From the NCBI GenBank assembly GCA_965223155.1, contig CBDCVR010000015.1:1184001-1248000 (forward strand): a stretch of DNA of 64,000 bases, read 5' to 3'. Each line of letters begins with the position of its first letter. Positions within the stretch are counted from its first letter, which is position 1. Of the stretch, positions 12,810 to 49,892 are shown piece after piece. A program made the translations under genes and the position numbers. Below the pieces are notes generated by a model, which did no database searches, was not told the DNA's origin, and saw only the letters and a list, made by a program, of their open reading frames with translations. Source of the stretch: Candidatus Multivoradales bacterium (GTDB lineage: Bacteria; Acidobacteriota; Thermoanaerobaculia; Multivoradales; JAHEKO01).

Positions 12810-14030
12810 ATGACCTATAACTTCGTTGGTTTCGCCCTGCTCTCGGTCCTGGCATTCCTCTTCGTGCCCGTACTGGTCAAGCAGTGGCTGCGTATTCCTC
12901 AGGCGATTCTTCTCGGGGCGATCGCGGTTCGCGCTCTGGGGAGCCTGATCCGTTACGAGGTGCTGTATCGATTCTATGGGGGCGTTGGAGACGCGGTGGC
13001 GTACTACTTCGAGGGCCTGGAAGTTGCGCGCAGACTGTGGCGGTTTGATTTGGGGCCGCTGTCTCCCCTCTACTGGTTCGACACAGCGCGTTGGTGGGGA
13101 ACCCCCTTTCTGGAAAAACTGGCCGGCCTGGCTGTCGCGATGTCGGGTCCCTCGATGCGCTCCTCGTTCTTCCTGTTCAGCCTCGCCGCCTTTGCGGGTC
13201 TGGTGATGATGGCGGTGGCGTTTCAGAGATCGATGTCGGTGCCGGCGTCGATTCGATTTGCCACCTTTCTGCTGCTCTGGCCGTCGCTCTGGTTCTGGCC
13301 CGGAAGCATCGGCAAGGAAGCGGTGACGTTTCTGGCGGTGGGGCTGACGACCCTGGGTGCGGTTGGCAAGAGGGAATCCGTGTCCTGGCTGCCGCTGGTG
13401 AGCGGACTCTTGCTGGCCTTTGCCATACGACCGCACGTAGCGGTGGTGCTGGCCTTTGCGCTGGCGGTTCAGCAGTGGACGGTGCGCCGGGAGAGAATCA
13501 ACACGCGGGCCGCGGCCGAGGCGCTGGTCCTCGTGCTGGTCCTGGTCGTGGCATTGGCGGGGATGACGCAGACCTTCGGCTCCGACGAGCGATTCCAGCT
13601 TGGCGACGATGGCAATGTCGTCGATTTCCTGGGGTTCTGGGCCGGTCAGTCGACCGCGGGCGGAAGCCGAATCGCCGTGGCGCCACTGGGACTTGTCGGA
13701 ATCCCGGTGGCCTTTGCCAACATCTGGCTGCGGCCGTTCCCGTGGGAGATCGGCAACCCGATGATGGCCCTTGCGTTTGCCGAGCTCGCCGTGTTTTGGT
13801 GGTTGGTGGCGCGTAACCGGAATGCCGTATGGCTGACGCTCAAGAACTGGCGCCACAGCCGGATCTTGCGGTTTGCGCTGCCGCTGCTCCTGGCGTACAC
13901 GCTCTTGATCGGCTTTACCTTTGGCAATCTCGGGATCATCGCCAGGCAGCGCACCCCGGTCTATCCCTGCATGCTGATGGTGCTCTGCGCTATGCCGCGC
14001 CCGGTGCTCCGGACCGGCTCGCGGCGCTAG
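12810..14030 (+). CDS. Multi-pass membrane protein, putative Wzy-type polysaccharide polymerase
   Basis: About 10 hydrophobic segments; PSLWFWPGSIGKEA, IRPH, RPFPWE, GNLGIIARQR; last gene of the GT operon. Confidence 0.6.
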   Translation: MTYNFVGFALLSVLAFLFVPVLVKQWLRIPQAILLGAIAVRALGSLIRYEVLYRFYGGVGDAVAYYFEGLEVARRLWRFDLGPLSPLYWFDTARWWGTPFLEKLAGLAVAMSGPSMRSSFFLFSLAAFAGLVMMAVAFQRSMSVPASIRFATFLLLWPSLWFWPGSIGKEAVTFLAVGLTTLGAVGKRESVSWLPLVSGLLLAFAIRPHVAVVLAFALAVQQWTVRRERINTRAAAEALVLVLVLVVALAGMTQTFGSDERFQLGDDGNVVDFLGFWAGQSTAGGSRIAVAPLGLVGIPVAFANIWLRPFPWEIGNPMMALAFAELAVFWWLVARNRNAVWLTLKNWRHSRILRFALPLLLAYTLLIGFTFGNLGIIARQRTPVYPCMLMVLCAMPRPVLRTGSRR

Positions 14031-14055: not shown

Positions 14056-15267
14056 CTAGAGAAACCACTCGCGCAGCACGACCGTGTCGCCCGCCTGCAA
14101 GGCGATGTCCGGCCGCTTGCCGGTCCGGATCTTCTTGACGTCGACCCAGAGGGTCTCTTGCTCGCCGCTTGACAGGCGGCGGATGATCGACACCTTGCCC
14201 AGCTTGGCGCGCTCGGTGGGGCCACCGGCCGCGGTGATGGCTTGCAAGACGGAGATACCCTCGGCGCCCAGAAACTCGATGCTTCCGGGGTTGCGCACGG
14301 CACCGGTGACATGCACCGAGAAGACCTTGCTTTCCGGAGCCATCACAATGTCTCCGGGCAAGATGGGGACGTTGAGACCGAGATCTCCTTCGTCGATGAG
14401 TCGAGAGGCGTCGATCTCGAGGCGGCTCTGGGCGCCGCCGGCGTCACGGCGGATGATGACGACCTTGTCCGAGCTCTGGCGGCCGCGGTCCAGTCCGCCG
14501 GCAATGCCCAACACCTCGAGCAAGCTCAGGCTACCCCGGGCTGGATAGATCCCCGGCCGGTTGACGGCCCCCTGGACCGAGATTCCGCCGAGCGCGGTCT
14601 CCTCGACCACGACGAACACCTTGGGATTCTTGAGAAACTGTCCCTCACGCAGCAAGGCGGCGATCCGTTCCTCGGCCTGCTCCGGGGTCAGGCCCGCGAT
14701 GTCGAAACGGCCCAGCAAGGGAAGTGCGATGCGCCCATCGGGAGTGACCCGCGGCTGACCGTCGAGCTCGGATGTGCCGAAAACGTCGACGTTGAGCTTG
14801 TCGCCGGGTCCGATTCGGGCGGTGCCGCCAAGAGCCACCGAGGACGCGGTTTGGAGGTGGAGCTCGACCGAATTCTGGCGGCGCTCGAGACTGAAGAAAG
14901 CAGGTTCTCGAGTCTCGACCGTGACCGTCACCAGGTTTCGCTCTCCGCGCAGGCTGGAAATGGAGATTCTGGAGACGAGGCCGCTCTGGTATTGCTGGTC
15001 GGCCAACCCCTGGGAGAGCAGGGCGTCTTCGAGATCGACTTCCAGTCGCCGGGCGCTGACCGAGCGTGTGCGCCAGTCGACCTGTCGGTCGAGATCGAAG
15101 ACGACGAGGGTGCCGTCCGTGTGCGTGACGCGGCCGACAGCGAGAAGGGTCGGAATCGTCTGAGTTTCGGAACCGACGGGACTCACCGCTTCGGCCTGGG
15201 CCGCCGCCGGTGGGGATGGCGCCAGAAGGAGAAGCACGCCGAGCAGGATTGGAAGAAGTCGTTTCAT
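14056..15267 (-). CDS. Polysaccharide export protein (OPX/Wza family) with N-terminal AMIN-like domain and SLBB repeats
   Basis: Signal peptide without a lipobox; Poly_export IGPGDKLNVDVFG..DGRIALPLLG..AGLT; two SLBB domains (VQGAVNRPG, VTGAVRNPG..AITAAGG); ends VVLREWFL. Confidence 0.85.
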   Translation of the reverse strand: MKRLLPILLGVLLLLAPSPPAAAQAEAVSPVGSETQTIPTLLAVGRVTHTDGTLVVFDLDRQVDWRTRSVSARRLEVDLEDALLSQGLADQQYQSGLVSRISISSLRGERNLVTVTVETREPAFFSLERRQNSVELHLQTASSVALGGTARIGPGDKLNVDVFGTSELDGQPRVTPDGRIALPLLGRFDIAGLTPEQAEERIAALLREGQFLKNPKVFVVVEETALGGISVQGAVNRPGIYPARGSLSLLEVLGIAGGLDRGRQSSDKVVIIRRDAGGAQSRLEIDASRLIDEGDLGLNVPILPGDIVMAPESKVFSVHVTGAVRNPGSIEFLGAEGISVLQAITAAGGPTERAKLGKVSIIRRLSSGEQETLWVDVKKIRTGKRPDIALQAGDTVVLREWFL

Positions 15268-15284: not shown

Positions 15285-16574
15285 TTAGTTGGACACGATC
15301 TCGATGTCGTCCAGATCCAAGCCGAGCCCGAAGTGCAGCGCGTCGACGGTACGGTCGAACTCGGGGAAATTCGAGTCGTAGTCCCGGCGCGAACCCCCCA
15401 GGTTGAGACTGACGCGCCGCAGCTTCATGTTGAAAATCAAGCCGTAGGAGACGAAGTCATCTTCTCGTGGCGAGAATCCGCTCTCCTGGTAGTCGACGAC
15501 TCCGGACTCGCCGAGGACTCGTAGCGAGAGCCGGCTCGAGATTGCCGGAGTGAGCGAAACGCCGAAGGCAGTGGTCAAGTAGTATGGGATCTCTTGATTG
15601 AGAGAGTATCCGAGGCTTCGGCGGCCGAAGAACTGCAACCCCAGATAGGGGCGCGTTTGAATGCCGACCAGAGCTCGACCGAGCGCCTGGGACGTCGTTT
15701 GCTCAGGGAGGGCGTCGAACTCGATCTCGTGAACGGCAAGGTCGAGCGCCAGGCGGAGCCGCTCGTTGGCTTGATCGAAGCGAAAGATCCCGGCAGTACT
15801 GGTGTTGGAGCGATCGAAGCCGGCACCAGGCCGCGAGAAGTCCGACTCGGATTCCTGGATTCCGAGCCCGATATTGGCACCGTGGGTCGTCTGGTAGAGA
15901 AGACCCGCGGCGACGATGCTTTCGTCGCGATCGTGCGCCGCGACGTCGGCCAGGACGTCTTCCTGATCGAAGCCGGTCTCTTGGTAGGTCGCTTCGAGGA
16001 ACAAGCCGAGACCGCCGCGGATGGCGCCGGTCACGCGCAGCTCGGCGCGGTCTTTCCGGGTCGTCACCTGGTCCTCGAATTCCGAGCTGAAGATCTCGCC
16101 GTGCTCTTGAGCGGAGAGGCCGAGCGAGTAGCCGAGGCGCCCGGTCTCGCCGATCAATCGAGTCGCGATGCGGCCGCGGAATCCGCTGCGGGCGCCACCG
16201 TCCTCGAGCCAGGTGTAGCGTGGCAGGACTTCGGTTGTCCAGATGGTCCGTCTGCCCACGGGAAGGTAGCCCTTGAGACCCGCGACCAGCGAGGCCGTGG
16301 GCCGGGTCTTGGTGTCGTAGATGTCGAATCCGTCGCTCGTGGTCTTGCGCTGCCTTGCGGTCGTGCGGACACCGATCTGACGAATCTCGAGCGTTGGACT
16401 GAGAAAGTACCGGCCCAGCTTCCACCGCGCGTTGGAGAGCTCGTTCTCGAACAAGGTGTAGGACGGTGCGGGTTGCTCCCAGACGCCGGGTTCCGCGTGC
16501 CCACCGAATTGGGCGAACGAGGGGATCGCGGTGAGGAGACAGCTACAAGCGAGTACCGTGATTCTGGGTCTCAT
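15285..16574 (-). CDS. Outer-membrane beta-barrel protein, polysaccharide-export associated
   Basis: Signal peptide MRPRITVLACSCLLTAIPSFAQ; alternating amphipathic beta-strands rich in Y/F/G; adjacent to OPX. Alternative start at 16640. Confidence 0.65.
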   Translation of the reverse strand: MRPRITVLACSCLLTAIPSFAQFGGHAEPGVWEQPAPSYTLFENELSNARWKLGRYFLSPTLEIRQIGVRTTARQRKTTSDGFDIYDTKTRPTASLVAGLKGYLPVGRRTIWTTEVLPRYTWLEDGGARSGFRGRIATRLIGETGRLGYSLGLSAQEHGEIFSSEFEDQVTTRKDRAELRVTGAIRGGLGLFLEATYQETGFDQEDVLADVAAHDRDESIVAAGLLYQTTHGANIGLGIQESESDFSRPGAGFDRSNTSTAGIFRFDQANERLRLALDLAVHEIEFDALPEQTTSQALGRALVGIQTRPYLGLQFFGRRSLGYSLNQEIPYYLTTAFGVSLTPAISSRLSLRVLGESGVVDYQESGFSPREDDFVSYGLIFNMKLRRVSLNLGGSRRDYDSNFPEFDRTVDALHFGLGLDLDDIEIVSN

Positions 16575-16636
16575 GGAGGTCTCCCGCGGAGTCGCAACCG
16601 CACCGGGCGGCTCCGCCGGGCGGATTGTTTCACGAC

Positions 16637-17398
16637 TCAACCGTCGTCATCCACGGCGGCCAACAGAGCGCGCGGCCGCTGACGCAGCCACCGATCGACG
16701 TGGACCGCCGAGAAGGACTGTTCCAGAATGGCCGCCGCTCCGGCAAGGTTTGGCGGCCGGCGGACCGGATCGTGGCCGTCCGAGGCGATGAAGTCGACGA
16801 GACCGCCATGCAGGAGATGGTCGACCGGGCGCTTCCGTCCCCAGCGCGGCGTGCGGATGGCTTCGGCGTTGACCTGAATGACGACGCCGTCGCCCTTGAG
16901 CTCGGCGATGAGGGCGGGCTCGGCGGCAAGCGCCGGGTAGCGTTCGACGTGCGCGAGCACCGGCACGAAACCGGCGTCGGCGATGCGCTCGAGAGCCCCT
17001 CGGAAAGCGTGCGCCGGAAGACCGGGGAAGAACTCGACCAAGAGGTGGCGTGTGCCGGCCAGGGGCAGAACCCGCTTGTCCTCGAGAGCTTCAAAGAAGA
17101 ACGAATCGACGTAGTGCTCGGCGCCCAGGACGAGCTCGATCGAGGCGAGCGCCGGCTCGACATCGGCTCGTGCGGCCAGCGCGGCGCGGAGCTCCTCGAA
17201 GGTGCTCGCCAGCTCGGCCGGCGAGCGCTCGTCGAAATACGGGGCGTAGAGGTGCGAGGTTGCCGCGAGCACGGAGGTGCCGTTCGCGGCCGCGAGGCGC
17301 ACGAGGTCCAGGGCGGCCTTGAGATCCGGCGGCCCGTCGTCGACTCCGGGCAGAACGTGGCAATGGCAGTCGACGAACCCTGAGGAGGTCCCGTTCAC
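16637..17398 (-). CDS. CpsB/CapC PHP-family tyrosine-protein phosphatase
   Basis: DCHCHVLPGVDDG, ATSH, GAE, AHVERY, ASDGH. GTG 17398 overlaps the upstream TGA. Confidence 0.9.
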   Translation of the reverse strand: MNGTSSGFVDCHCHVLPGVDDGPPDLKAALDLVRLAAANGTSVLAATSHLYAPYFDERSPAELASTFEELRAALAARADVEPALASIELVLGAEHYVDSFFFEALEDKRVLPLAGTRHLLVEFFPGLPAHAFRGALERIADAGFVPVLAHVERYPALAAEPALIAELKGDGVVIQVNAEAIRTPRWGRKRPVDHLLHGGLVDFIASDGHDPVRRPPNLAGAAAILEQSFSAVHVDRWLRQRPRALLAAVDDDG

Positions 17399-18969
17399 GG
17401 CCGGCCGAGCGCGCAGCGGAACCCCACCAGCGAGCTCGAGGAGTCCCGCACCAGGAAGGAACGATGGTCGGGGTCCATGCCTTCGAGAGTATGGTGTCCC
17501 TTGAGCACTCGGAACTCGGCCGTTTCGGCCTCTTGGGTTGGAGCGCTCGGCTGATACCGGGAGTTGGTCCATTCGTAGAGGGGCTCGAGGTCCAACTTGC
17601 CCGTGACAAATGCCAAGCGCCACTCCTGCTCGGTGGGTAGGCGCTTGCCCGCGCTGGCGCAGTAGACAACGGCTTGGTCGAAGCGAACGTCGGTCGCCGC
17701 GTCCACCAGGCTGTTGGCACGAGGGATGGACTCCAGAGCGGAATACGCTTGGAAGGACACCGGCTTGCGATCGATCCAGAAGGTCTCCTCGCCGTTGGCC
17801 GGGCCCACCCGGAGCATGCCGCGGCTGGCGCGCTTGAATGTTTTTTGGGCCAGGACCGCGGGATCTTCGGTGGGTTCGGGCTGCGGAGGTGGCGGCACCT
17901 CGGCTACCGGGTCCTCGCTCGGTAGCTCGGCTGGCGCGGCCGTACGTTCGGCTACGACGGGTGCCGGTGCGGGCTCGGCCGCCACCGGTTGGCTCCGCTG
18001 TCCGGCTTGGGCAACAATCGCCGCGGGGGGTCCGCCTCGGGCCGGCCAATAGGGAACGTAGACCGTGTCGAGCTCGGCCAAGACCAGCGGCTCGGCTTTG
18101 CCTTGGCCCATCGCCTTGAGATTGGCGGTCAGGACGAGGGGCTCGCCGCCAGGCCCTCCCCGGATGACCGAGACCTTTTCGAGGCCGGCTCGAGGCGTCG
18201 TTCCTCCGGCCGCTCCAAGGGCGAGATCGACCGAGGGCAGGGGGCTCTCGATCTCGACGAGACCGGGCTCCTCCACGGCCCCCAGGACGTAGACGCGGGT
18301 GCGCTTGCGCGGTCGGACCAGGACAATATCGCCGGCTCGGAGCGGCAGGTCGAGAGCCGGATCTCGACTGGTCAGCAGGTGTTCCCCATCGATCGGCGTC
18401 TTGGTCTGTGAGCCAGCCTCATCGAGGCGAACCAGCAGGATCGACGCGTCGGTGGCGACTGCGGGCAAGGCGCCAGCTGCGTCCAGCAGGGCCAGCAGGG
18501 TCGGATGCTCTTCCAGCCGGTAGGCGCCGGGCTCGGTGACTCCGCCGGAGATCGTGACTTCGCGCGGAGCCAAGGCGTCCAGGGTCACGAAGACCTGCGG
18601 GTCTTGAATCAGATCGGAGGCTTTGAGGATCCGCGCCAGGCGCCGTTCCGCTTGTTCGAGGGACAGTCCGGCGACCTGGATGCGATCGACCAGTGGGATC
18701 ACCAGGCGGCCATCGGGACGGACGTCGTAGACGCCCGATAGCTCATCCACACCGAAGACCTCGACCTCGAGCCGGTCTCCGGGAACGATCCGATACTCGC
18801 TCAGATGCTCGGTCGGGAAGCGGGAAATCTCGATCGCGGGGGCTTCTGGCTCTTGCGCGGACAGGCCGCCGACACCCAGACAGAGCCCGGCAAGAAAGCT
18901 CGCAACGATCCAACGAGCGCGCCGGTAGCGCCCGGATCGGGCACCGGCGGCACCTCCTAGCGAGCGCAC
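17395..18969 (-). CDS. OPX/Wza-family export protein fused to a C-terminal minimal FGE-sulfatase/CLec-fold domain
   Basis: YRIVPGDRLEVEVFG..DGRLVIPLV..AGLS, two SLBB domains, Pro/Ala/Glu linker, then FDQAVVYCASAGKRLPTEQEW..YEWT..RVLKG..VGFRCA. Confidence 0.8.
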   Translation of the reverse strand: MRSLGGAAGARSGRYRRARWIVASFLAGLCLGVGGLSAQEPEAPAIEISRFPTEHLSEYRIVPGDRLEVEVFGVDELSGVYDVRPDGRLVIPLVDRIQVAGLSLEQAERRLARILKASDLIQDPQVFVTLDALAPREVTISGGVTEPGAYRLEEHPTLLALLDAAGALPAVATDASILLVRLDEAGSQTKTPIDGEHLLTSRDPALDLPLRAGDIVLVRPRKRTRVYVLGAVEEPGLVEIESPLPSVDLALGAAGGTTPRAGLEKVSVIRGGPGGEPLVLTANLKAMGQGKAEPLVLAELDTVYVPYWPARGGPPAAIVAQAGQRSQPVAAEPAPAPVVAERTAAPAELPSEDPVAEVPPPPQPEPTEDPAVLAQKTFKRASRGMLRVGPANGEETFWIDRKPVSFQAYSALESIPRANSLVDAATDVRFDQAVVYCASAGKRLPTEQEWRLAFVTGKLDLEPLYEWTNSRYQPSAPTQEAETAEFRVLKGHHTLEGMDPDHRSFLVRDSSSSLVGFRCALGRP

Positions 18970-21797
18970 CGAAACCCTAGGGTCGCGTGGCTATCCGCGG
19001 GTGCCAGGTAGCGCCGCTGCTGGATGTTGAGAGCGGTGCCCGCCGCCCGTCCCCGGACCGAGCGGAAACTCTCGCCGTACTGAGACTCGGGCCGCTCGTT
19101 GCCCGGGTAGGCCTGGTACCAGGAACCGGTCCACTCCAGAATGGGGAAGAGATTGGCGTCAAGACGTTGCGCCGCCGCCTCCCATTCGTACTCGGTGGGG
19201 AGCCGTTTGCCGAGAGCTTGGCAGAAGGCTCGGGCGGTATCGAAGTCGACTCCGGTCGCGAACCCCTCCTTGACGGCTGGCGGTGGACCGCCGGTGATGG
19301 TCTCGTAGTCGATGGCCTTGACTGGCGCGAGATCGAGCTCGAAGGCCGCGAGCCGAGCCTCGAAGCGAGGCTGCTGGTTGTAGTAGGAGGCTTCGCCGGC
19401 GGGCAGTCCGATGGCGTAGCGGCCGCCGCGCACCCGCGCCATTCTGGTTGTGGGTCGGGTGGTGGGCCGGGCCGCGGGCGCCCGCTCCGAGGGGGTTGGG
19501 GGTTTCGAAGACGGCTGCCTACCCGGCGATCGGGCCTCGACGCCTCGGGACGCCTTGGCCACGGCCTTCTGGGCCGACTCCAACTCGCTCTCCAGCGTGG
19601 CGATTCGATCGGCCTGCCGTCCGGTCTCGGAGCGGGCCTGTTCGAGCTGACCGGTGAGCTCGGCAACCTTCGCCTCGAGAACCCGTCTCCGACCCTCGTT
19701 CGCGGCCAGCGCCTCTCGGGCGCCGTCGAGGTGTTTGCGCAGCTCGGTCTCGGACTGGCTGGCGCCGGAGCGGGCCGCCTCAAGCTCCTCTTGGAGAGCC
19801 TCGTTTCTGCGGTTCGCCTCTTGGACGGCCCCGGCCAGACGGCTCCGCTCGCTTTCGACGGCATCCAGGCGGTCCTTGAGGTCGGTCGCTTTGGCGGATT
19901 CGACTTCGAGCCGTCGGTCCAGCTCACTCTGGGACGAGACGGATTTCTTCCGGGTTTCCTCGAGGGCCGCCTGGGCGTCCTCGAGCTCTGCCTTGGTCCG
20001 GTTGAGCTCCCCGGCGAGGTTCTGCCGCTCGGAACCGGCGTTCTCGAGGTCCGAGGCGAGCTCGGCCGCTTGCGCCGCGCTTGCAGCCAGATTGGCCTTG
20101 ATCTCCCGATTCTCGGCGGCCAGAGAGCTCAAGGACTGACGAACGGCCTCGATCTCGCTTTCGAGGTTCGAGACTCGAGTTCCGGACTCCGACTGCAGCG
20201 CCTCGAGACGGGAAGCGAGGCCATCGCGTTGGCCCGTGACTTCATCCAGCTTGGCATTGAGGTCCGCGGCCTGGGACTCGGCCTCGCGCAACCGGGCGCG
20301 GGTGGCCGCGAGCTCGGTTTCGAACTCACGGGTCGAGGCGCCCTGCTCGGTGCGGAGTTTGGCGATCCGGCCCTCCAGAGATGCGATCTCGGCGGCGAGC
20401 CTGGTGCCGGATTCACGGCTTTCGGCAAGCGCGGTCTCCGAGACGGCGAGTTTTTGGGAGAGGTCCTCGGTCTCTCGACTCCGTGCGCGTAGCGCGTCCC
20501 GAGTCTCGGCAAGATCGCTGGTCAGCTCTGTCCCGCGCTGCTGCGAGGCCTCCAGGTTGGCGGTCAGCACAAGGCCCTGCTCGCGGCTTTCCGCCAAGTC
20601 GCCTTCGAGCGCCGCGATCGAGGCATTGGCCGCCTCGAGGCCGGTCCGCGTTTGCGTCAGGTCCGCGCGCAACTGGTCGCGCTCGGCACGCACTTCGCGT
20701 GCCACCCGGACCTCGGCCGCGCCGTCGTCGATTTCCTTCTGGAGCCGGCGGCCGTGGGCCTCGGCCCGGTTGAGCTCCTTGTCCAGCCGGTTGCGTTCTT
20801 TGCGCAGTTCGCGATAGTCGGTGACCTCGTCTCCGGCCGAGGAGAGGTCCTTCTGGAGCCGGACGATCTCGTCTCGGGCGTGGGCGAGTGCTCGGTTCGT
20901 CTGGTCGCGTTCGCGGCGGAGCTCGCGGTAGTCGGCGACCTCCCCGTTGGCGGCTTCGAGTTGTTGCTCGAGACGCGAGGCCTCCGCGCGGGCGTCGGCA
21001 AGTGCTTGCTCGGCCTGGTCGCGTTCGCGGCGCAGCTCGCGGTAGTTGGCAACCTCGCCGCTGGCGGAATCCAGGTCGCCTTCCAGCGCCGAGATCTCCT
21101 CGCGGGCTCGAGCCACGTCGCGCAGCAGACGGTCGCGCTCCTCGCGGACCGGAGCCAACTCGATGAGTTGTTCGTTTGCGGCCGCGAGCTCGGTTTCGAG
21201 CCTGGACTTGTCTGATTGAACGCCGGTGAGGTCGCGCACGAGCCGATCTCGCTCGGCGGTGACCCCGTCGAGGGTCGTGACGCGCTCCCGCGCCGCGGCG
21301 ATCGAGCTCTCCAGGGTTGCGACCCGGTCGTTGGCGTCCGCCAAGGTGCCGCGCGCCGCTAGGAGATCGGCTTCGAGCGTTTGCTTCGCGGTCAAAGCTT
21401 CAGACAGTTCACGGGTGAGAGTGATTCTCCGATTCTCGGCCTGTTCCAGGTCCGCCCGCAGGCGCTGAACGTCGGCGGATGCGGCTGGACTAGGCGGGGT
21501 CGAGGCGCTGGCCGCCAGCTCGAGGCGGTTCGCCGGAACCCTGAAGCGAACCTGATGGCCCGGCTTGACGTCGGTTCCCGCGGGAAGCCGGAAGGCCGAC
21601 TCGCCGTCCTCGGTCGCGGCGATCTCGCCGTGGCCGAGCTCGATCCGCTGCGAACGGCCGCCCACGACCAGCTCGTAGTAGACCTCGCCTCGGTCCCCCG
21701 GCCGGAGACCGCCGAGGGTCCCTTGGTCGAGACGGGCGAGCGCACCATCGATGTCCAGAATCGTGGCCAGGACGACCACCAGCTCAGCTACGTTCAT
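18957..21797 (-). CDS. Long coiled-coil protein with small N-terminal beta domain and C-terminal FGE-sulfatase/CLec-fold domain
   Basis: N-term LDQGTLGGLRPGD (FlgT-C-like, low certainty); roughly 640 aa of E/A/L/R heptads; C-term ARAFCQALGKRLPTEYEWEAAA..LEWT..RSVRG..LGFRCAR. Confidence 0.8.
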   Translation of the reverse strand: MNVAELVVVLATILDIDGALARLDQGTLGGLRPGDRGEVYYELVVGGRSQRIELGHGEIAATEDGESAFRLPAGTDVKPGHQVRFRVPANRLELAASASTPPSPAASADVQRLRADLEQAENRRITLTRELSEALTAKQTLEADLLAARGTLADANDRVATLESSIAAARERVTTLDGVTAERDRLVRDLTGVQSDKSRLETELAAANEQLIELAPVREERDRLLRDVARAREEISALEGDLDSASGEVANYRELRRERDQAEQALADARAEASRLEQQLEAANGEVADYRELRRERDQTNRALAHARDEIVRLQKDLSSAGDEVTDYRELRKERNRLDKELNRAEAHGRRLQKEIDDGAAEVRVAREVRAERDQLRADLTQTRTGLEAANASIAALEGDLAESREQGLVLTANLEASQQRGTELTSDLAETRDALRARSRETEDLSQKLAVSETALAESRESGTRLAAEIASLEGRIAKLRTEQGASTREFETELAATRARLREAESQAADLNAKLDEVTGQRDGLASRLEALQSESGTRVSNLESEIEAVRQSLSSLAAENREIKANLAASAAQAAELASDLENAGSERQNLAGELNRTKAELEDAQAALEETRKKSVSSQSELDRRLEVESAKATDLKDRLDAVESERSRLAGAVQEANRRNEALQEELEAARSGASQSETELRKHLDGAREALAANEGRRRVLEAKVAELTGQLEQARSETGRQADRIATLESELESAQKAVAKASRGVEARSPGRQPSSKPPTPSERAPAARPTTRPTTRMARVRGGRYAIGLPAGEASYYNQQPRFEARLAAFELDLAPVKAIDYETITGGPPPAVKEGFATGVDFDTARAFCQALGKRLPTEYEWEAAAQRLDANLFPILEWTGSWYQAYPGNERPESQYGESFRSVRGRAAGTALNIQQRRYLAPADSHATLGFRCAR
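20673..21254 (-). repeat. Degenerate 114-bp (38-codon) tandem repeat, six anchors
   Basis: ER(D/N)(R/Q) codon blocks begin at + positions 20673, 20787, 20901, 21015, 21129 and 21243, exactly 114 bp apart. Three copies share EV(A/T)(D/N)YRELR(R/K)ER. Confidence 0.8.
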
Positions 21798-22816
21798 GAT
21801 TCGACCTCCATCGATTCGTCGAGACTTCGAATGTCGGTGACTTCGACCTCAACCACGTTCCGGTCGACGTCAACGGCTTGGTCAAGGGCCTCTTCGCGTT
21901 CGCGCATCTCGCTCAAGAGATCGGTTCCGCCTGCGGCTGCCCGCTTCGTTTCCGATTCGGTTGCCGACTCAGACCCGGCCCCTTTGAGCCGGTTCGGCGC
22001 TCCGGGATTTGGAGCCGACCCGGAGCGGCCGCGGCGAAGGCCTAAGAGGGCCGCGCCCGCGGCAAGGGCCACCAAGACCGTGATCGGCCAGCCCGACCAG
22101 CCCGAGATGCTGGCTTCTTCGGTGTCCCAAGACGACGGCGAGGTCGAGTCCGCGTCGGCTGCCCCGTCCGAGGCCGCGCTCTGACTCGAAGCCGCCGGCC
22201 CGGATTCTTCGGGCGCGCGAACGGCATCGGTCTCGGTGCGCACGCTCGTGGCCTCGTGGGAGGGCTCGCTGCCCGAAGCCGTGGATGCGGCTGGAGAGGA
22301 GTCCTCTGCCGGGGGTTGTGCACGCGGCTCGCTGGTTGTCGTCTGGCTTGCGTCGGCGCGGACGTCAGAGGCTGGATCTCGCCGCGGTCGCGGCGCGGGA
22401 ACCGGAGGTGGGCTCGATCGTTGACGGCGCTCCGGTGCCGTGGCCGTCGGCCGGGTGCGCTGTCTCGACGCTTCTGGCTTCGTGTCCGGTACGGCGGAAG
22501 AGGGTTCGGCGCCGGGCTCGGCCGGGTCCTCGCCGGAGGCCGGGCGGAGCCGCGCCCGCAACGTCTTGGGCTCGGCGTCAACCGCGACCGAGAGCGTCAG
22601 ACTCTCGAAGCCTTCTTTCGACAGGGTCAGGCGATACTTGCCCTGTGGGATCCCTTCGACGGTGAGCACGCCGGTGGAGCTGGTCTTGCCCAGCGGGACC
22701 CCGTCCCAGAAGACTTCGACGTCGGGCTGAGTCGAGATCACCAGCGATCCGCCGGGGGCCTCCGCCGCCAGGAAGAGCAGGGCAAAGGTGGCGAAAACAC
22801 TCATCACGGCATCCAT
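21794..22816 (-). CDS. PEGA-domain protein with Pro/Ser/Ala-rich linker and C-proximal transmembrane helix
   Basis: GSLVISTQPDVEVFWDGVPLGKT..IPQGKYRLTLSKEGFE (PEGA); TM ITVLVALAAGAALLGL followed by RRGR; acidic tail. ATGA overlap with the coiled-coil gene. Confidence 0.75.
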   Translation of the reverse strand: MDAVMSVFATFALLFLAAEAPGGSLVISTQPDVEVFWDGVPLGKTSSTGVLTVEGIPQGKYRLTLSKEGFESLTLSVAVDAEPKTLRARLRPASGEDPAEPGAEPSSAVPDTKPEASRQRTRPTATAPERRQRSSPPPVPAPRPRRDPASDVRADASQTTTSEPRAQPPAEDSSPAASTASGSEPSHEATSVRTETDAVRAPEESGPAASSQSAASDGAADADSTSPSSWDTEEASISGWSGWPITVLVALAAGAALLGLRRGRSGSAPNPGAPNRLKGAGSESATESETKRAAAGGTDLLSEMREREEALDQAVDVDRNVVEVEVTDIRSLDESMEVES

Positions 22817-22895
22817 CCGATCGACCCGCTACGCTATCCCGGCGGCGGTTGGTTGTCGAACCGAACCGCCCGTTGCCAGGCGCCTTTGCAAGCCC

Positions 22896-25385
22896 TCAGG
22901 GAGCATCGCCGGAAGGTCTCCGAATCAGGCGAACCGCCTCCAGAATCACCTGGTCGCAGGAGGCGGAGGAAGTACCTCGCAGCGTCACGTTCACGGTTCC
23001 CGGTCCTTCTAGAGCGATCTCGGTCACTCGGATCTCGGGCTTCGCGGTCGTCGGAGCGAGCGCCAGGAAAGCACGAGCCCGGGTCCCCCGTTGGACCAGC
23101 ATCCACTGGAGAGCGGGAGCGCAGTGCGGCGCTCGGTACCGAACCGACAGCTCGTAGGTCCCGCTCCGGTCCAGGACGGCCGTTTGCGTGATGAGGGTCC
23201 CCGGCGACGGGCGGACGGCGAGAACGCTCTCCCCGTCGAGGGAGCGGAGGGCGAGGTCCTCCGCAGCCTTGCGTGCCGTCTTCCAGCCGAAGTCCGTGCC
23301 CGCGAACGCAGCATCGAAGTCCCCGTTCCAGAGAAGATTGTGGCCGTCGAGGTAGTCGCGGTCCGTAACTCCTCGGAAGGCTTGCCAGTCGGCCCAGCCT
23401 TGGCGGGCCTCGGTCGTCAGACCCTGCTCGGCGAATATTCGTAGGATTCGATCCCGCCTGCCGTCGGGTGCCGGCAGCGAGGCTTGCCAGACCTCGAGCA
23501 GTGCCTTGCCGTCGGGCTCCGGGCGAAGCGGACTATCGCGTCTCGCGGCCAGCCGCAGGAGCTCGAGCTGGCTGCGGGCATCGCCCGGCCAGACGGCCCT
23601 CAGCTGATCGAACGAGGCTCCCGCGCGAGCGAAGACGGAAAACCCCAGGCGGCCGTTCGTGCCGGCATCCAGTGCCCGGCCGAAGGCCGCCAAACCGCCC
23701 TCGAGATCGCCGCCGCGCAAGAGGAAGTTGGCGTGAATCCAGGCCAGGTTCGGATCTCGAGGATTGCGCTCCCTGGCGCCGGCCAGGGCCTCGGCAGCTT
23801 CCGGCCGCCGCTGTGCCAGCTCGTAGGAGGTCGCCGCCTCCTGCCAGTATCGCCAGTCCGCCGGCTGGAGCGCGACCGCGCGCTCCAGCGCCTCGAGCGC
23901 TCCGGGGTTGTCGCCGTGGGCGCGGCGGACGAAGCCGAGCCGGAAGAGGGTCTCGGCGTTTCTCGGGTCGAGTCGCGCCGCCCGTTCGAGGTTGACCGGG
24001 CTGGGCTCGCCGAAGGTCAGGGCGCGGGCCGCGAGCCGATGTCCGGCGATGAGGCCCGAAACGGCGAGAATGCCGATGGCTATGAGGGAGACGAGACCGG
24101 CCGCGGGCAGCGCGTTTCCGGCACGGCCCCGGCCCCCGTGGGGAGCCTGGATGCCCAGGCCGCAACCCAGGAGGGCGGCGAAGGCAAGTGCGTTGGCGGG
24201 GATCTGGAGATTGAAGTCGACCAAGCCGTGGACGAGGAGGCCGACGACCGGGGCCAGAAGCAAGAGAGATCTTCTGGCCCGGGAGTCGTCCTCTCCGGCG
24301 ACCGCCGTCCGGATTTGGACGGCCAGCCACCAGCCCAGCAGGGCGAGAAGCATCGCGGCGACCGGCAATCCCCATTCGGCGGCCAGCTCCAGGTAGTCGT
24401 TGTGCGCGTGGTAGTAGGTGTTCTTGAGGTTCGGCGTCTGGAACTCGCGAAACCGCCAGCGGTACATTCCCGGTCCGACGCCGGCCAGAGGATGGTCGGC
24501 AACGAGAGCGAGAGTGTCGCGGTAGATCGTGAGCCGGTCCTTGAGCGACAGGAGGCCGGAACGCACCACGAGGGCGGCGGCCGCGGCCAAGGCCGCCGGC
24601 ACCGAGATGCCAAGGACAAGCGCTCCAGGACGGTTCCGGTTGCGCCGGAGCCGCCGCAGGAGAACGAGAGACGCCGTGAGGATGGCCGCGGAAGCGAAGG
24701 CCAGCCATCCGCCTTTCGAGTCCGAACGGTACAGAGCTGCGACGCAGACCGCGAGCATGGCGCCGGCGCCCAGCCGGAGTCCAGGCCGCGCCCCAGCCCG
24801 GCTCTCGCCGGGTTGCCCCCCGAACGGCGTCAGAAGAACGCCGGTCAGGATGAGGGCACCGATCGAGACCGCGCCGGCAAAGTGATTCGGATTGACGAAG
24901 GTTCCGGAGGCGAGATCGACCGGAATCTCGGGATCGGGACCCAAACTCGGAAGCAGTCCCGAGGCCGCGGCCAGACCGTAGAGCGCTTGCGCCGTCGAGA
25001 GACAGGCCAGGACGGCCAGCACGAGATCGGCTCGCCGCGTGCTCGCCGCGACCGCCGCCGCCGCGACCGTAAGGGCCGCCCAGACCGACGCGGCGAACAG
25101 AAACCCGTCGGCGCGAAGCGTCGGCAGCCCGACAAAGGCCGCGACCGGCGCTAGCCCGGGAAGCGCCAGGGCCCACCACCGGAGCGAAGCGCCCCTCCTC
25201 GCCTGGGCGACCAGGACCCGGCCGAAAGCGAGCGCGAGCGGGATCCAGATCGCCAGGCGGATCCAGGACGGCGTGCCGCCCAGGCCCACTGTCGCAGCGG
25301 CGACCACCCCCAAGAGCAAAGCCAGAGGGCCGGCGGGCACCTGCCCGGCTTCCGGCGCTGCTTCGGCCGGTGCTACCGACACCAC
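22896..25385 (-). CDS. O-antigen ligase (Wzy_C)-family membrane protein fused to TPR repeats and a CBM-like C-terminal domain
   Basis: SGTFVNPNHFAG, SDSKGG, PLAGVGPG, HAHNDYLELAAEWG, HGLVDFNLQIPAN; TPRs (ARLDPRNAE, ALQPADW, ERNPRDP); NLLWNGDFD. Confidence 0.8.
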   Translation of the reverse strand: MVSVAPAEAAPEAGQVPAGPLALLLGVVAAATVGLGGTPSWIRLAIWIPLALAFGRVLVAQARRGASLRWWALALPGLAPVAAFVGLPTLRADGFLFAASVWAALTVAAAAVAASTRRADLVLAVLACLSTAQALYGLAAASGLLPSLGPDPEIPVDLASGTFVNPNHFAGAVSIGALILTGVLLTPFGGQPGESRAGARPGLRLGAGAMLAVCVAALYRSDSKGGWLAFASAAILTASLVLLRRLRRNRNRPGALVLGISVPAALAAAAALVVRSGLLSLKDRLTIYRDTLALVADHPLAGVGPGMYRWRFREFQTPNLKNTYYHAHNDYLELAAEWGLPVAAMLLALLGWWLAVQIRTAVAGEDDSRARRSLLLLAPVVGLLVHGLVDFNLQIPANALAFAALLGCGLGIQAPHGGRGRAGNALPAAGLVSLIAIGILAVSGLIAGHRLAARALTFGEPSPVNLERAARLDPRNAETLFRLGFVRRAHGDNPGALEALERAVALQPADWRYWQEAATSYELAQRRPEAAEALAGARERNPRDPNLAWIHANFLLRGGDLEGGLAAFGRALDAGTNGRLGFSVFARAGASFDQLRAVWPGDARSQLELLRLAARRDSPLRPEPDGKALLEVWQASLPAPDGRRDRILRIFAEQGLTTEARQGWADWQAFRGVTDRDYLDGHNLLWNGDFDAAFAGTDFGWKTARKAAEDLALRSLDGESVLAVRPSPGTLITQTAVLDRSGTYELSVRYRAPHCAPALQWMLVQRGTRARAFLALAPTTAKPEIRVTEIALEGPGTVNVTLRGTSSASCDQVILEAVRLIRRPSGDAP

Positions 25386-25391
25386 GGACTG

Positions 25392-27665
25392 CTAGCGGTT
25401 GCCGGCGGGCGACGTGTTGTACGAATCGTAGTAGCCGTACTTCGAGTAGTACCCGTACCGGAAGCGCGAGCTTTCAACGCCGTTCAGCACTACGCCCAGG
25501 ATCGAGGCGCCGACGCTCTGAAGCAGGTTCGCGGTCCGTCCGACCAAGGCCCGAGGAGTCCGTCCGCTGCGAGCGACCAGGATGACGCCATCGGCGTGCT
25601 GCGAGATGACGAGCGGATCCGACAGCTCGAGAGCGGGCGGGCTATCGATGACGACGTGGGTGAAGTACTCGCGCATCAGATTGATGCCGCGATCCATCCG
25701 CTCCGAGCCGAGAAGCTCAGGGGGATTGGGTGGGGTCTGCCCCGCGCCGACGAAGAACAGGTTGGACACCTCGGTGGTGACGATGAGCGAGGACAGATCG
25801 GAAGTACCGGCGAGAAAGCCGCTCAACCCGACTTCGTCCTCGATGTCGAGGAGCGCTCCGAGCCGTGGCCGTCGCAGGTCCATATCGACCAGGAGGGTTC
25901 GGTTGCCGGCCTGGGCGAGCGCGATTGCGATATTCGCGGCGGTGGTGGACTTGCCTTCCGAGGGTGCCGCCGAGGTGATGAGGATTGTCTGCGGCGGCTT
26001 GCCGGAGTGCGACAGGAGAATCGAGGTGCGCAAGGCGCGGTAGGCCTCGCGTGCCCGCGCGCTTTCGCGGGTCGTTTCGGCGTCGGAGAGCAAGATCTGG
26101 TGCCCTTCCGCCCGATGCCGGCGCAGCCGTGCCCGAAGGCCCCTGGCGGGAGGATCGAGCCTCGGGATGACGCCCAGGCTCGGCAGGTTCAGATACTTGG
26201 TGACGTCGTCGGCGCTCTTCAGACTGTTGTCGATGAGCTCGACGACGAATGCTACGACCACTCCCAGACTGGCCCCAAGGAGGAGCGCCAGAAAAAGGGC
26301 CTGCGTTTTGTTCGGCGTGTAGGGCGAGACCGGTCGCAAGGCGGGCTGAGTGACCGCGATGTTCTGGACTTGGATGCCGGCGGCGACTCCGGCTTCCTTG
26401 AGACGGGTCAGAACGCTCTCGTAGAGTTGCTTGCTAGTCTCTGCCTCCTGCTTGAGCAAGTCGTACTCGGCGGTCTCGGCCCGGTTCTCGCCAACGGAAG
26501 ACCGCACCGAGTTGCGCTCGGCCTGAAGCCGTCCGCGCCGTGAGCGCAGAAGTTGCAGCTCGCGTAGCGCTCGATCGGCGGCCCGGTCCTTTTCGGCCGC
26601 AAGCTGCAGATCCAGCTCGGCGAGCTTGTCCCGGGTGTCCTGAACCTCCGGCCAGGCGGGGCCGAAACGAGCCCGCAGCTCCGCCAGCTTGTTCTCGAGC
26701 TCCCGCCGCTGCGACAGCATGGCAAGGATGGAGGAGTCCAAGATGGAATCCGGAAGGTTTTCCACCGACGAGCGGCGGATGGTGTCGTACTTGGCCGCCT
26801 GGGCGGCGATGTCGTCGTCGGCGCGGGTAATGGCTTGGCTCAAGTCATTGAGTTGCTGCTGGCTAGAGCTACGTTCGCCGCCGAGGTTCTCGAGATTGTT
26901 CTCGCTGGCGTATTCGTACAGGCGCCGTTCCGACGCTTCGAAATCGATCTTGAGGTCTTCGAGCTGCTTCTGGAGAAATTCCGTGGCTTGGCCGATGCGG
27001 CTGAAGCTGGCCTCCAATTGCTCGTCCACGAAGAGCTGAGCGAGGCCGTTGGCGACCAGTTGGGCCGCGTCGCGGTCCGGCGAGTCAAAGTGGATGTTGA
27101 TCAGCCAGGTGCGGCGAACCGGTTGGACCGAAGAGTATTGGCGCACACGGTTGATGAGAGCCCGTTGCCCCGGTTTCGAGCCCCTGGCTCGGATGGAGTC
27201 TCCGCGAACGAGTCGCTTGGCCACTGCCAGCGCGCTCTCTCCTCCTTCCCTCAGAATGCCGGACTTGATGGGCGCGATGAACGCTTCGTTGTCCGCCAAG
27301 TCGAGCCGTTCGACCACCTTCTCGGCCAAAGCCGAGCTCCTGAGCTTGGTGATCTCGGTCTGCAGAGCCTCGTCCTGGCTGCGTCCTCGCCGGGCCTGTC
27401 CCAGGTCCTGGAAGGGGAGTACGTTGGCCGGGTTCGGATCGACCTGAATCGTCGCGGTCGAGCGGTAGAGCGGGGTGATCGTTGCGACCTGGAGCGCCGT
27501 ACCCGCGACCACCAGGGCCAGCATGCCGGCCACCCAACGCCAGCGGCGCTGCAGAATCTCGAGATAGCGCCGTAGCGAAAAGACGTCCGAATCGAGCCCG
27601 GCGGGTTGCTCGATAACCGCTGGAACCCCGAACGGATTCTCTTTTTTGGGAACGAGTTGGCCCAT
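25392..27665 (-). CDS. wzc: Polysaccharide co-polymerase / BY tyrosine autokinase (Wzc/GumC)
   Basis: Wzz N-term (RRWRW..TPLYRSTATIQV), two TMs, Walker A SAAPSEGKST, A' VDMDLRRP, B VIDSPP, C-terminal Tyr cluster YGYYSKYGYYDSY. Confidence 0.92.
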   Translation of the reverse strand: MGQLVPKKENPFGVPAVIEQPAGLDSDVFSLRRYLEILQRRWRWVAGMLALVVAGTALQVATITPLYRSTATIQVDPNPANVLPFQDLGQARRGRSQDEALQTEITKLRSSALAEKVVERLDLADNEAFIAPIKSGILREGGESALAVAKRLVRGDSIRARGSKPGQRALINRVRQYSSVQPVRRTWLINIHFDSPDRDAAQLVANGLAQLFVDEQLEASFSRIGQATEFLQKQLEDLKIDFEASERRLYEYASENNLENLGGERSSSQQQLNDLSQAITRADDDIAAQAAKYDTIRRSSVENLPDSILDSSILAMLSQRRELENKLAELRARFGPAWPEVQDTRDKLAELDLQLAAEKDRAADRALRELQLLRSRRGRLQAERNSVRSSVGENRAETAEYDLLKQEAETSKQLYESVLTRLKEAGVAAGIQVQNIAVTQPALRPVSPYTPNKTQALFLALLLGASLGVVVAFVVELIDNSLKSADDVTKYLNLPSLGVIPRLDPPARGLRARLRRHRAEGHQILLSDAETTRESARAREAYRALRTSILLSHSGKPPQTILITSAAPSEGKSTTAANIAIALAQAGNRTLLVDMDLRRPRLGALLDIEDEVGLSGFLAGTSDLSSLIVTTEVSNLFFVGAGQTPPNPPELLGSERMDRGINLMREYFTHVVIDSPPALELSDPLVISQHADGVILVARSGRTPRALVGRTANLLQSVGASILGVVLNGVESSRFRYGYYSKYGYYDSYNTSPAGNR

Positions 27666-27798: not shown

Positions 27799-27830
27799 GC
27801 ATTCCGTCACCCACTGTGGGGGAGGAAACT

Positions 27831-49242: not shown

Positions 49243-49785
49243 CTACTCGCCGGCGTGTCGGGGATAGAAGTCGAAAGGGTTCTCGGACGAGGTCAGGGCC
49301 TTGGCGACGTAGACGATCTGGCCGGTGTGGTAGCTCATGTGCTCGACTGCGTGCACGAGGGCGCTGCGCCGGTCGGTGGCGTAGCCCTGAATCGTGCATT
49401 TGGGCTCGAGGTCGGCGTCGCTGAGCGAGCCGAGCACCCGGTGAGCCGCCGCGACCGTTTCCGCCAGAAGGGCTAGGAGCTCCTCTTTCGAATGCGACCG
49501 GTCGGCGGTGAACTCGCCCGCCCGATCCCGCTCGTAGGCGCGCTCGCCCAGCGCTTCGAGGATCCAGAGCGAGAGGTTGCCGCGCAGGTGCAAGAGCAGA
49601 TTGCCGACGCTCAGGGCGTTGGCGTGTGGGCGCCACCAGAGCTGGTCTTCACTCAGCCGGCTGGTGGCCAGACCGATCTTGTCGAGGTACTCGTCGAGGT
49701 AGCGCGTGCCGAGCTCGACCAGAGACCGGCTGGGTCCGCCTTCGAGCGCGGTTGTGGGGACCTCGGTTGTTTCCGTCTCGGACAT
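49243..49785 (-). CDS. DinB/DUF1572 family protein
   Basis: QLWWRP..SVGNLLLHLRGNL, RDRAGEF, HAVEHMSYHTGQIVYVAK. Confidence 0.8.
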   Translation of the reverse strand: MSETETTEVPTTALEGGPSRSLVELGTRYLDEYLDKIGLATSRLSEDQLWWRPHANALSVGNLLLHLRGNLSLWILEALGERAYERDRAGEFTADRSHSKEELLALLAETVAAAHRVLGSLSDADLEPKCTIQGYATDRRSALVHAVEHMSYHTGQIVYVAKALTSSENPFDFYPRHAGE

Positions 49786-49892
49786 GGGCGCAACGATACC
49801 CGATCGGCCATCCACGGCCGGCCGGCTCGGGCCGGCTCGGATTGCCACTGCCGGGCTCCGACCACCGTGGCGCTGGATAAGATCGAACGCCG

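Follow-up and report, generated by a model that had tools for sequence, protein, structure and literature searches.

Wzx/Wzy-type export with a Class-3 OPX protein is the commonest route by which bacteria secrete exopolysaccharides, and its trans-envelope architecture has only recently been worked out. As defined in PMC9603273, Class-3 OPX proteins have a Poly_export-SLBB architecture without Wza_C. In the WzaB-WzpB-WzcB system of Myxococcus xanthus (PMC12819527, PMC9603273), an OPX without an outer-membrane helix is associated with an adjacent β-barrel porin and a Wzc-type co-polymerase/kinase, and the extreme C-terminus of the OPX docks the porin (PMC12819527). The fold of the formylglycine-generating enzyme (FGE) is also known from bacterial envelopes: the FGE domain of TagR, a periplasmic protein of the H1 type VI secretion system (H1-T6SS) of Pseudomonas aeruginosa, is proposed to bind and dimerise the kinase PpkA (PMC13713981), and PorK uses a repurposed FGE fold as the ring hub of the type IX secretion system (PMC12421860). 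In this work we analysed a stretch of 64,000 nucleotides, hereafter the window, from Candidatus Multivoradales bacterium (assembly GCA_965223155.1, contig CBDCVR010000015.1, positions 1,184,001 to 1,248,000). The region studied is the middle of a Wzx/Wzy-type exopolysaccharide export operon with Wzc, CpsB, a Class-3-type OPX and a predicted β-barrel porin, and three of its genes encode a PEGA protein, a very long protein with an N-terminal β-barrel and a C-terminal FGE-fold domain (the rod), and an OPX-FGE fusion. The main finding is that the conserved unit is not this trio but a pair, formed by a PEGA protein with a transmembrane (TM) helix and tail and by a barrel-FGE protein; the ~640-residue coiled coil of the rod and the OPX-FGE fusion are private to one genome. 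Operons of this type are familiar, the accessory pair is a variant not described before, and the trio is a singleton.

A conserved pair of PEGA and barrel-FGE genes

All eight genes of the operon lie on the minus strand, in the order wzc, Wzy_C/TPR, PEGA, rod, OPX-FGE, cpsB, porin and second OPX (OPX2), and the largest intergenic gap calculated from the coordinates of their open reading frames (ORFs) is 79 bp. The PEGA protein has 340 residues (21794..22816; Pfam PEGA), the rod 946 (18957..21797; Pfam FGE-sulfatase at the C-terminus) and the OPX-FGE fusion 524 (17395..18969; Pfam Poly_export, SLBB and FGE-sulfatase). The original prediction, made from the DNA letters, had described three genes with these domains joined by overlaps of 4, 13 and 4 bp, and reading of the DNA, Pfam and identical contigs from other assemblies all confirmed this. 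Stop and start at the PEGA/rod junction share ATGA (4 bp), with GGAGG 7 nt ahead of the rod ATG; the TAG that ends the rod gene is 13 bp within the OPX-FGE frame, whose GTG at 18969 is the sole start ahead of its signal peptide; and the GTG start of cpsB overlaps the OPX-FGE stop in a shared GTGA (4 bp). Two Logan contigs (37,086 and 17,376 letters), one from each of two samples, both cover 16600-22900 with 0 differences and 0 gaps, and therefore the OPX-FGE fusion and the long rod gene are not assembly chimeras, with the qualification that both samples come from one study and that the source of the window is possibly among them.

What recurs in other genomes is the pair. Among the 1.84 billion cluster representatives searched, 169 matched the rod FGE domain at E<=1e-10, and the rod barrel is present in 62 of the best 150, at the extreme N-terminus in 61 of those 62. 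Since most members of this protein family have only 250-430 residues, composed of the N-terminal domain, a variable spacer and a short FGE domain, the rod is an over-long family member. Within the taxonomic family of the window, 14 of 44 other genomes carry the barrel, and a match to the PEGA profile including TM helix and tail was obtained in 12 of these 14 vs 2 of the 30 genomes without the barrel (in one more of those 30 genomes the match had in-frame stops), the genomes being related and these counts hence not independent; the two barrel genomes without such a match are 74% and 68% complete. We compared 15 family loci from 12 genomes, several of them truncated by the end of a contig. In 10 of these loci the PEGA gene is the immediate upstream neighbour of the barrel-FGE gene, and 3 others have it at most ~12 kb away on the same contig; 8 contain wzc, and in 7 the barrel-FGE gene is followed directly by cpsB. 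Beyond the family, 6 loci from four other families were inspected. The PEGA gene precedes the barrel-FGE gene in 4 of them, and three of these four (families f36, f38 and f105) also have wzc, OPX and cpsB. For instance, the order in genome G361 is OPX, wzc, PEGA, a gene for signal peptide, barrel and FGE domain, cpsB and Wzy_C; a genome of a third family (G586) has a PEGA gene and a signal-peptide/barrel/TPR/FGE gene beside OPX, wzc, cpsB and Wzy_C; and one of a fourth family (G258) has two PEGA/barrel-FGE pairs. Over the whole phylum, barrel-like domains occur in 21 of 401 genomes, the own genome counted. A contig scan with the whole-family alignment picked up FGE-generic patterns, with just 2 true family loci among 80.

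Thus the proposal that a Wzc-type export operon contains a conserved accessory module not described before is borne out, in the form of the PEGA/barrel-FGE pair. The synteny of the trio, on which the original prediction had set its own refutation test beforehand, fails: OPX-FGE is present in none of the 15 related loci and was found nowhere else. A word-based, length-limited search of a 5.8-billion-protein collection returned no second OPX-FGE fusion, with the whole fusion and its FGE part as queries, and no other long protein with the short FGE type. In the literature, the main texts of the OPX classification and mechanism papers (PMC9603273, PMC12819527) have no FGE, formylglycine or PEGA, and nothing on a PEGA/FGE-type accessory module in polysaccharide export was found among the open-access articles searched.

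The PEGA protein begins with a hydrophobic N-terminus (residues 1-21), followed by the PEGA domain (residues 25-85; 22562-22744), which passes the Pfam gathering score with 30.4 bits (cut-off 20.8; 49.7 bits in the G586 homologue). A stalk of 157 residues rich in Pro, Ser, Ala and Thr (28 Ser, 13 Thr, 23 Pro) leads to the TM helix (residues 243-260; 22037-22090) of this bitopic protein, and the cytoplasmic tail carries the motif F[LM]xxLRxRE (residues 299-309; 21890-21922) and after it an acidic VxVEV stretch. Two dipeptides, the RR that follows the TM helix and the RE within the tail motif, are invariant in the alignment of 7 PEGA homologues, and the motif is present in 10 of 11 fully read homologues, or in 12 proteins from four families when that of the window and a motif-bearing frame of locus L021 are added. 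The PEGA proteins of G361, G586 and one G258 contig (C36) have the same architecture and the same cytoplasmic motif. The sequence of the stalk is unconserved, and in some homologues its length is down to about 40-60 residues.

The N-terminal domain of the rod (N-dom; residues 1-97; 21507..21797) is modelled by AlphaFold2 (AF2) as a six-stranded, FlgT_C-like β-barrel, with a mean pLDDT of 94.3 and a pTM of 0.84. Its closest solved fold is the FlgT chain of the Vibrio LPHT ring (8z5n; Z 11.2, rmsd 2.5 over 87 residues; Foldseek E 1e-4), and further matches, at Z 8-9, are generic barrels (F1/V1 crown domains, MreC). The ESM Atlas gave a weak FlgT_C lead (score 0.81, 11% of members) that agrees with the fold match and is not independent proof of it. 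The FlgT families of Pfam have no match on the barrel of the window, and FlgT_C matches one ORF of another genome that has a weak N-dom-like match (E 1.3e-4), but elsewhere in that ORF. FlgT is a periplasmic protein that builds a ring, the flagellar H ring of Vibrio. The barrel superposes on one FlgT domain (3w1e; 8z5n), whereas the rod shares this one domain only, has no FlgT_N or FlgT_M, and lies in a locus free of flagellar genes.

The following part of the rod (residues 107-750; 19548..21479) is predicted to be an α-helical coiled coil from its composition and from matches to SMC, Rad50 and similar families, all under their cut-offs. A single Pro (P216) occurs between residues 105 and 750, and a Pro-rich linker (19443-19547) precedes the FGE domain. 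The name rod refers to the elongated shape that such a sequence would give to this ~640-residue helical region. A 114-bp unit repeated 2.1 times at 20865-21107 (76% matches) corresponds to 38-residue protein repeats in the coiled coil, and thus the spacer grew, at least partly, by tandem duplication.

The barrel also occurs in other combinations. In two genomes (L024 9166-11628 in G009:C2; L023 1-1777 in G010:C28) it is followed by a coiled coil of 590-820 residues with no FGE domain, and the G009 paralogue is divergent from wzc, in a cluster that also holds a PEGA gene; a paralogue of this type is one candidate for the origin of the rod. Barrels are fused to one or two Csd6-type NTF2-like domains (PF24125) in L022 6972-8384, L130 10001-10741, L131 9483-10391 and L128. 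In G039, the genes for a YkuD L,D-transpeptidase, which also has this domain, and for an M14 peptidase are ~2 kb away from such a fusion gene, and in G230 the fusion gene ends a glycosyltransferase/sulfotransferase cluster; the Pfam name 'Cds6' probably means the Csd6 of H. pylori, through a typing variant in PMC4398505. A Ser/Thr kinase (L139 277-3210, G604:C149) has, after its membrane segment, a barrel-like domain and then four PEGA domains, which is a natural fusion of the modules.

FGE-fold domains without catalytic residues

The rod ends in a short non-catalytic FGE-fold domain (residues 786-946; 18960..19442) of a clade that we call NF, and OPX-FGE ends in a related one. Their Pfam FGE-sulfatase scores are 51.4 and 47.2 bits, respectively, and the two tails are 35% identical over 127 residues (E 6e-21). 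Both match PF03781 only at profile positions 94-138 (or 94-123) and 186-255 of 255, and therefore the domains, of about 130-160 residues each, are truly shortened and are not whole FGE domains despite passing the Pfam cut-off. The own genome has no further copies of the short type and three ordinary FGE-sulfatase genes elsewhere.

Two cysteines are present in each domain, C859 and C944 in the rod and C437 and C519 in OPX-FGE (which has also C30 in its signal peptide), and in the PDB alignments they fall on Cys218 and Cys365 of human FGE (chain index). We take these two to be the structural disulfide of the human enzyme, and its catalytic copper-binding pair to be the one numbered Cys336/Cys341. 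The catalytic CxxxxC pair and the GGS motif are absent from both domains in the alignments, where no Cys stands between EWT and GFRC, and neither Pfam nor NCBIfam matched a DinB_2 iron domain in the rod or OPX-FGE; the sole DinB_2 gene of the window (49243-49848) is unrelated. The description of two related, shortened FGE-fold tails that lack the catalytic Cys pair and GGS therefore holds, by identity, partial profile match and alignment. Having neither the FGE Cys pair nor a DinB domain, the FGE-fold domain most likely binds and does not catalyse.

Among known enzymes, the best sequence and fold matches are the C-terminal FGE-like domains of EgtB and SenA (6qki, 8ryz, 8k5i), in NCBIfam, PDB sequence and Foldseek comparisons alike. 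The rod domain matches NCBIfam SenA at E 1.3e-14 and the PDB sequences of SUMF2, SenA (E 9.5e-7) and EgtB, and in the AF2 model of P0006, a 321-residue member 51% identical to the rod FGE domain (pLDDT 86.5), the C-terminal domain matches that of SenA/type II EgtB ahead of true FGEs (Foldseek E 2e-10). A PYPG-type motif after EWT is common to both groups, but the window proteins are without DinB_2, hence without an iron site, and belong to an export operon and not to a thiol-histidine pathway. Over ~150 residues of the family alignment, 20 columns are invariant, among them those of SWYxPYPGN, RLPTE.EW, EWT, RRF and GFRC; the rod retains 20 of 20, together with 15 of 16 near-invariant columns. 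The rod domain clusters with members that have coiled-coil spacers of 100-250 residues (SH-aLRT 90), and the NF clade is separated from full-length FGE outgroups with an SH-aLRT of 99. Such strong conservation, with SWYxPYPGN and RRF recalling substrate-side motifs of the EgtB/SenA C-domain, could point to active enzymes, that is, to sulfatase maturases or EgtB-like formers of C-S bonds on the polymer pathway. Nevertheless, we consider this very improbable, given that there is no CxxxxC copper site, that the profile is matched just in the two segments given above, that the proteins have no DinB_2 iron domain and that no conserved His is found among the invariant columns.

A minimal FGE-type lectin fold is also the ligand-binding tip of longer proteins in the case of the variable proteins of diversity-generating retroelements (DGR; TvpA, 2y3c), but the match to 2y3c reached just E 0.64. 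A retroelement-diversified tip was rejected, as there is no reverse transcriptase among the scanned ORFs and no template/variable repeat pair in the window, whose only long direct repeat is one 48-nt pair of 73% identity, outside the FGE domains.

The OPX-FGE fusion and its export locus

The OPX module of the fusion (residues 1-305; 18055..18969) consists of a signal peptide, Poly_export (73.2 bits) and two SLBB (61.2 bits), and the remainder (residues 310-524; 17398..18042) consists of a Pro-rich linker (17797-18042) and a degenerate NF-type FGE-fold domain (17398-17796), identified by alignment and tree. As in Class-3 OPX proteins, both OPX-FGE and OPX2 (14056..15267) have Poly_export plus SLBB, a signal peptide and no Wza_C/GfcC in Pfam. 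The statement that none of the three genes encodes a canonical export component therefore needs correction for OPX-FGE, being right for its tail only, since its N-terminal part is a canonical Class-3-type OPX. Identity to the OPX proteins of relatives is 36-40% for the OPX-FGE module and 39-55% for OPX2; because OPX2 is closer, it is the orthologue and OPX-FGE an extra paralogue. At residues ~40-140, OPX2 has a β-rich N-terminal extension of ~100 residues with no Pfam match, which by eye we take to resemble an AMIN-type domain.

In the tree, the fused FGE domain falls within the NF clade, where its terminal branch is the longest of all (1.13 vs a median of 0.36), and it is not sister to the rod domain; its closest relative in the family is the barrel-FGE gene of another genome (44% vs 36% for the neighbouring rod). 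It retains 15 of the 20 invariant and 8 of the 16 near-invariant columns, and is without the 14-residue AxFYNQxPRF segment and the YPGN motif. We read it as a fast-evolving, partly eroded clade member that is eroding or changing function. As to its origin, we infer a deletion between tandem export modules that left an OPX gene fused with the sequence for linker and FGE domain from a second barrel-FGE gene; two export modules, or the order barrel-FGE then OPX, occur in some relatives.

Since the C-terminus of the Class-3 OPX docks the porin in M. xanthus, the fused linker and FGE domain would emerge at the OPX-porin interface. WzaB ends in an aromatic C-terminal motif, as OPX2 also does (W-F-L), whereas OPX-FGE runs past the porin-docking C-terminus by an ~80-residue linker and a lectin-fold domain and, with ~215 residues beyond the OPX module, has no free aromatic C-terminus; the requirement for such a terminus comes from one model system, WzaB. 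By analogy, the extension may alter or block the OPX-porin contact.

This predicted position at the OPX-porin interface (PMC12819527) also favours the structural reading given by the original prediction, according to which anchor, rod and FGE/lectin tips would tether, measure or display a (sulfated) polymer through lectin-like glycan binding or FGE-FGE docking. In the form considered here, such a passive machine would have no signalling role and may form a translocon collar like PorK or FlgT. Both domain types of the barrel-FGE protein have ring-building periplasmic precedents, FlgT in the LPHT ring and the FGE fold in PorK, and the spacer length is highly variable within the family. As described in PMC12421860, PorK (like GldK/GldJ) is an FGE fold without catalytic cysteines that serves as periplasmic structural hub of an envelope-spanning machine, but it is a lipoprotein, contains large insertion domains and assembles with PorN into 33-fold rings, whereas the domain of the window is minimal (~150 residues) and closest to EgtB/SenA, and the rod has no lipobox. 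PorK is absent among the 50 Foldseek matches listed, and no PorN-like partner was seen, no search having been aimed at PorN-like genes. The two sulfotransferase-domain ORFs of the locus make a sulfated polymer plausible, but sulfotransferase homologues were found in only 2 of 27 loci, both of one genome, so that a link to sulfation is not general within the short flanks covered. Moreover, the trio is unique to one genome, the FGE domain of the exporter is missing 5 of the 20 invariant residues together with the 14-residue segment, and a purely periplasmic tether leaves the conserved cytoplasmic motif unexplained. FGE-FGE docking between rod and exporter is weakened in particular, since the fused domain is degenerate. 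A passive machine is therefore possible but rather unlikely in our opinion.

Regarding the other genes of the operon, wzc (25392..27665) encodes a PCP-2a-type co-polymerase and BY tyrosine kinase (TIGR01007 188.4 bits, cut-off 108; Wzz and GNVR domains), whose PCP domain, Walker-type kinase and Tyr-rich C-terminal tail are those of a BY-kinase, and cpsB (16637..17398) encodes a PHP-type phosphotyrosine phosphatase (CpsB_CapC 169 bits). Class-3 OPX proteins are paired in genomes with an 18-stranded β-barrel porin, and the likely porin partner of OPX in this locus is the predicted outer-membrane β-barrel (15285..16640; 451 residues, signal peptide); it is weakly EpsL-like (TIGR03014 EpsL, E 1.1e-4, far under the cut-off), and its adjacency to OPX is conserved in relatives. 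A promoter-like site lies ahead of wzc at 27769-27741, and the 5 terminator-like sites found within the operon, vs 7.2 expected by chance, are no excess; co-transcription of the trio with wzc is suggested by gene packing and by this single promoter-like site.

The polytopic Wzy_C (O-antigen-ligase/polymerase-like) protein with C-terminal TPR (22896..25385; Wzy_C 72.4 bits, TPR matches) is kept ahead of the PEGA gene in related loci. This constant position would suit a different explanation, in which the Wzy_C/TPR protein is an O-oligosaccharyltransferase-like ligase, the PEGA stalk its acceptor and the polymer covalently anchored to an inner-membrane protein, with the barrel-FGE protein as chaperone or reader of the PEGA glycoprotein. 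The Ser, Thr and Pro content of the stalk agrees with this, and the true polymerase could be the 406-residue polytopic membrane protein at 12810-14030 (plus strand), which has no family match and is convergent with the export operon; it could be a Wzy polymerase or another lipid-linked-glycan enzyme. The stalk, however, is conserved neither in sequence nor in length, and no acceptor motif was identified, so that we hold a PEGA glycoprotein to be improbable.

The portion of the locus inside the window showed no Wzx flippase and no priming transferase. On the plus strand upstream are glycosyltransferases, an FkbM methyltransferase, epimerase/dehydratases, a GNAT acetyltransferase and the two sulfotransferase-domain ORFs, and a 265-residue secreted-looking, Asp/Cys-rich protein with no family match (27816-28613, plus strand) is divergent from wzc. 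The remaining genes of the window are housekeeping genes. A malate synthase and a 757-residue isocitrate lyase with a 4-bp overlap (50544-54841, plus strand) and a GGDEF protein (58032-60533) are apparently unrelated to the export module.

Compartment and possible coupling to the Wzc/CpsB cycle

The reading that we tentatively prefer, at a little below an even chance, is that of a periplasmic binding module, anchored in the inner membrane and linked to the Wzc/CpsB cycle, plus two private elaborations in this genome. The PEGA protein would be anchored in the inner membrane, with PEGA domain and stalk in the periplasm and F[LM]xxLRxRE and VxVEV in the cytoplasm. The barrel-FGE protein, translationally coupled to it, would be a periplasmic protein whose barrel keeps it at the export machine, the PEGA protein being the most likely site of attachment, and whose FGE head would bind a translocon loop or the nascent polymer. 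Through its cytoplasmic tail, the PEGA protein could then couple binding by the FGE head to the Wzc/CpsB phosphorylation cycle, with a logic like that of TagR. Two private steps would have followed here: the spacer was expanded to ~640 residues of coiled coil, partly by tandem duplication, and a second OPX paralogue captured the linker and FGE part of another copy, giving rise to the chimera.

The likeness to TagR-TagQ-PpkA (PMC13713981) consists in a periplasmic, non-enzymatic FGE-sulfatase domain with a membrane-attached partner, whose proposed binding controls a transmembrane kinase. However, TagR has no FlgT_C-like barrel, its partner is an outer-membrane lipoprotein and not a bitopic PEGA protein, and PpkA, a Hanks-type Ser/Thr kinase, has a periplasmic domain of its own and is not a BY-kinase. 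The likeness considered here is that of the fold family.

Because barrel-FGE orthologues in two other families carry a signal peptide, the pair probably works in the periplasm. Canonical signal peptides, judged by eye without a predictor, are present in the G361 and G586 orthologues and in the barrel-FGE proteins of seven more genomes of the phylum. Likewise, the FGE-sulfatase domain is full-length in 8 of 14 scanned barrel-bearing ORFs, in which TPR repeats often separate it from the barrel, and all eight, as well as the truncated barrel protein of one further genome, start with a signal peptide. The rod has two cysteines in its 946 residues, both at the positions of the disulfide pair of human FGE, and the fusion of an NF-type FGE domain to a secreted OPX in this genome also points to the periplasm, as do the position of the barrel and PEGA domains after the membrane segment of the G604 kinase and the fusion of barrels to Csd6-type NTF2-like domains. 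An envelope role, as first proposed, is most probable from the signal peptides of the orthologues.

Several observations weigh against the periplasmic module. It is patchy, none of the 4 congeners having the barrel, and is therefore dispensable for export as such; a DNA comparison with these congeners matched only the flanking radical-SAM gene (~65%) and is too insensitive to judge absence of the operon. One PEGA homologue (G258:C32) is without the tail motif, and the barrel-FGE gene of the other G258 pair (C36; L160 9026-10122) is frameshifted in the FGE domain just after RLPTE, being either a pseudogene or a sequencing error. A continuous coiled coil of 640 residues would measure ~95 nm at the textbook rise per residue, too long for the periplasm. 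Finally, neither the rod nor the family of the window has a separate signal peptide: their N-terminus is 16-20 residues shorter than in the orthologues with signal peptide, and in the aligned N-termini their hydrophobic run overlies β1 of those orthologues, is modelled in the rod as barrel strand β1 (AF2, pLDDT 98) and is mostly without a positive n-region, with A11 conserved in at least 90% of sequences.

These N-termini could be explained if the barrel-FGE protein has lost its signal peptide and is a cytoplasmic scaffold tethered to the PEGA tail, with the coiled coil as a spacer under the membrane; the FGE head would then bind a cytoplasmic peptide or the lipid-linked repeat unit near Wzc/CpsB, and OPX-FGE would be a compartment-mismatched relic. 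No separate signal peptide is present in 61 of 62 family members, the start of the rod is fixed by GGAGG and ATGA with no upstream start, and β1 is confidently modelled within the barrel. A cytoplasmic location would also provide the partner that the PEGA tail motif requires in that compartment, and would agree with the existence of the barrel proteins with long coiled coils and no FGE domain, and with the erosion of the fused FGE domain. On the other hand, canonical signal peptides are present in orthologous pairs from equivalent operons, barrels of the wider family belong to secreted proteins (LysM, CsgG-like, FlgT, PEGA-repeat ectodomains) and the Cys pattern fits a disulfide pair. In addition, the hydrophobic run, which has 9-12 residues and precedes acidic ones, could act as an export signal on its own. 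We therefore regard a periplasmic location of the barrel-FGE protein as clearly the likelier, and the cytoplasmic scaffold as an unlikely alternative that still deserves attention.

In its most specific form, the periplasmic module would act in trans-membrane feedback, with a lectin-fold head that senses either the growing (possibly sulfated) chain or how far the OPX-porin exit is occupied, a PEGA tail that signals to Wzc/CpsB and a spacer (~60 to ~640 residues) that sets the reading distance. Such a device is a doubtful proposition at present; if true, Wzx/Wzy pathways would have a new means of controlling chain length or export rate. Evolutionary tinkering, rather than a new machine, is the better explanation of the giant coiled coil and the OPX-FGE fusion. 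As for the fold itself, the domain would join PorK, TagR and the retroelement-diversified receptors as another way in which the non-catalytic FGE fold is used. The conserved pair would add parts that are absent from current models of export, namely an inner-membrane-spanning protein with a cytoplasmic motif and a secreted protein with a lectin-like head, and would offer a handle on how the passage of polymer through the periplasm might reach the cytoplasmic tyrosine-kinase cycle.

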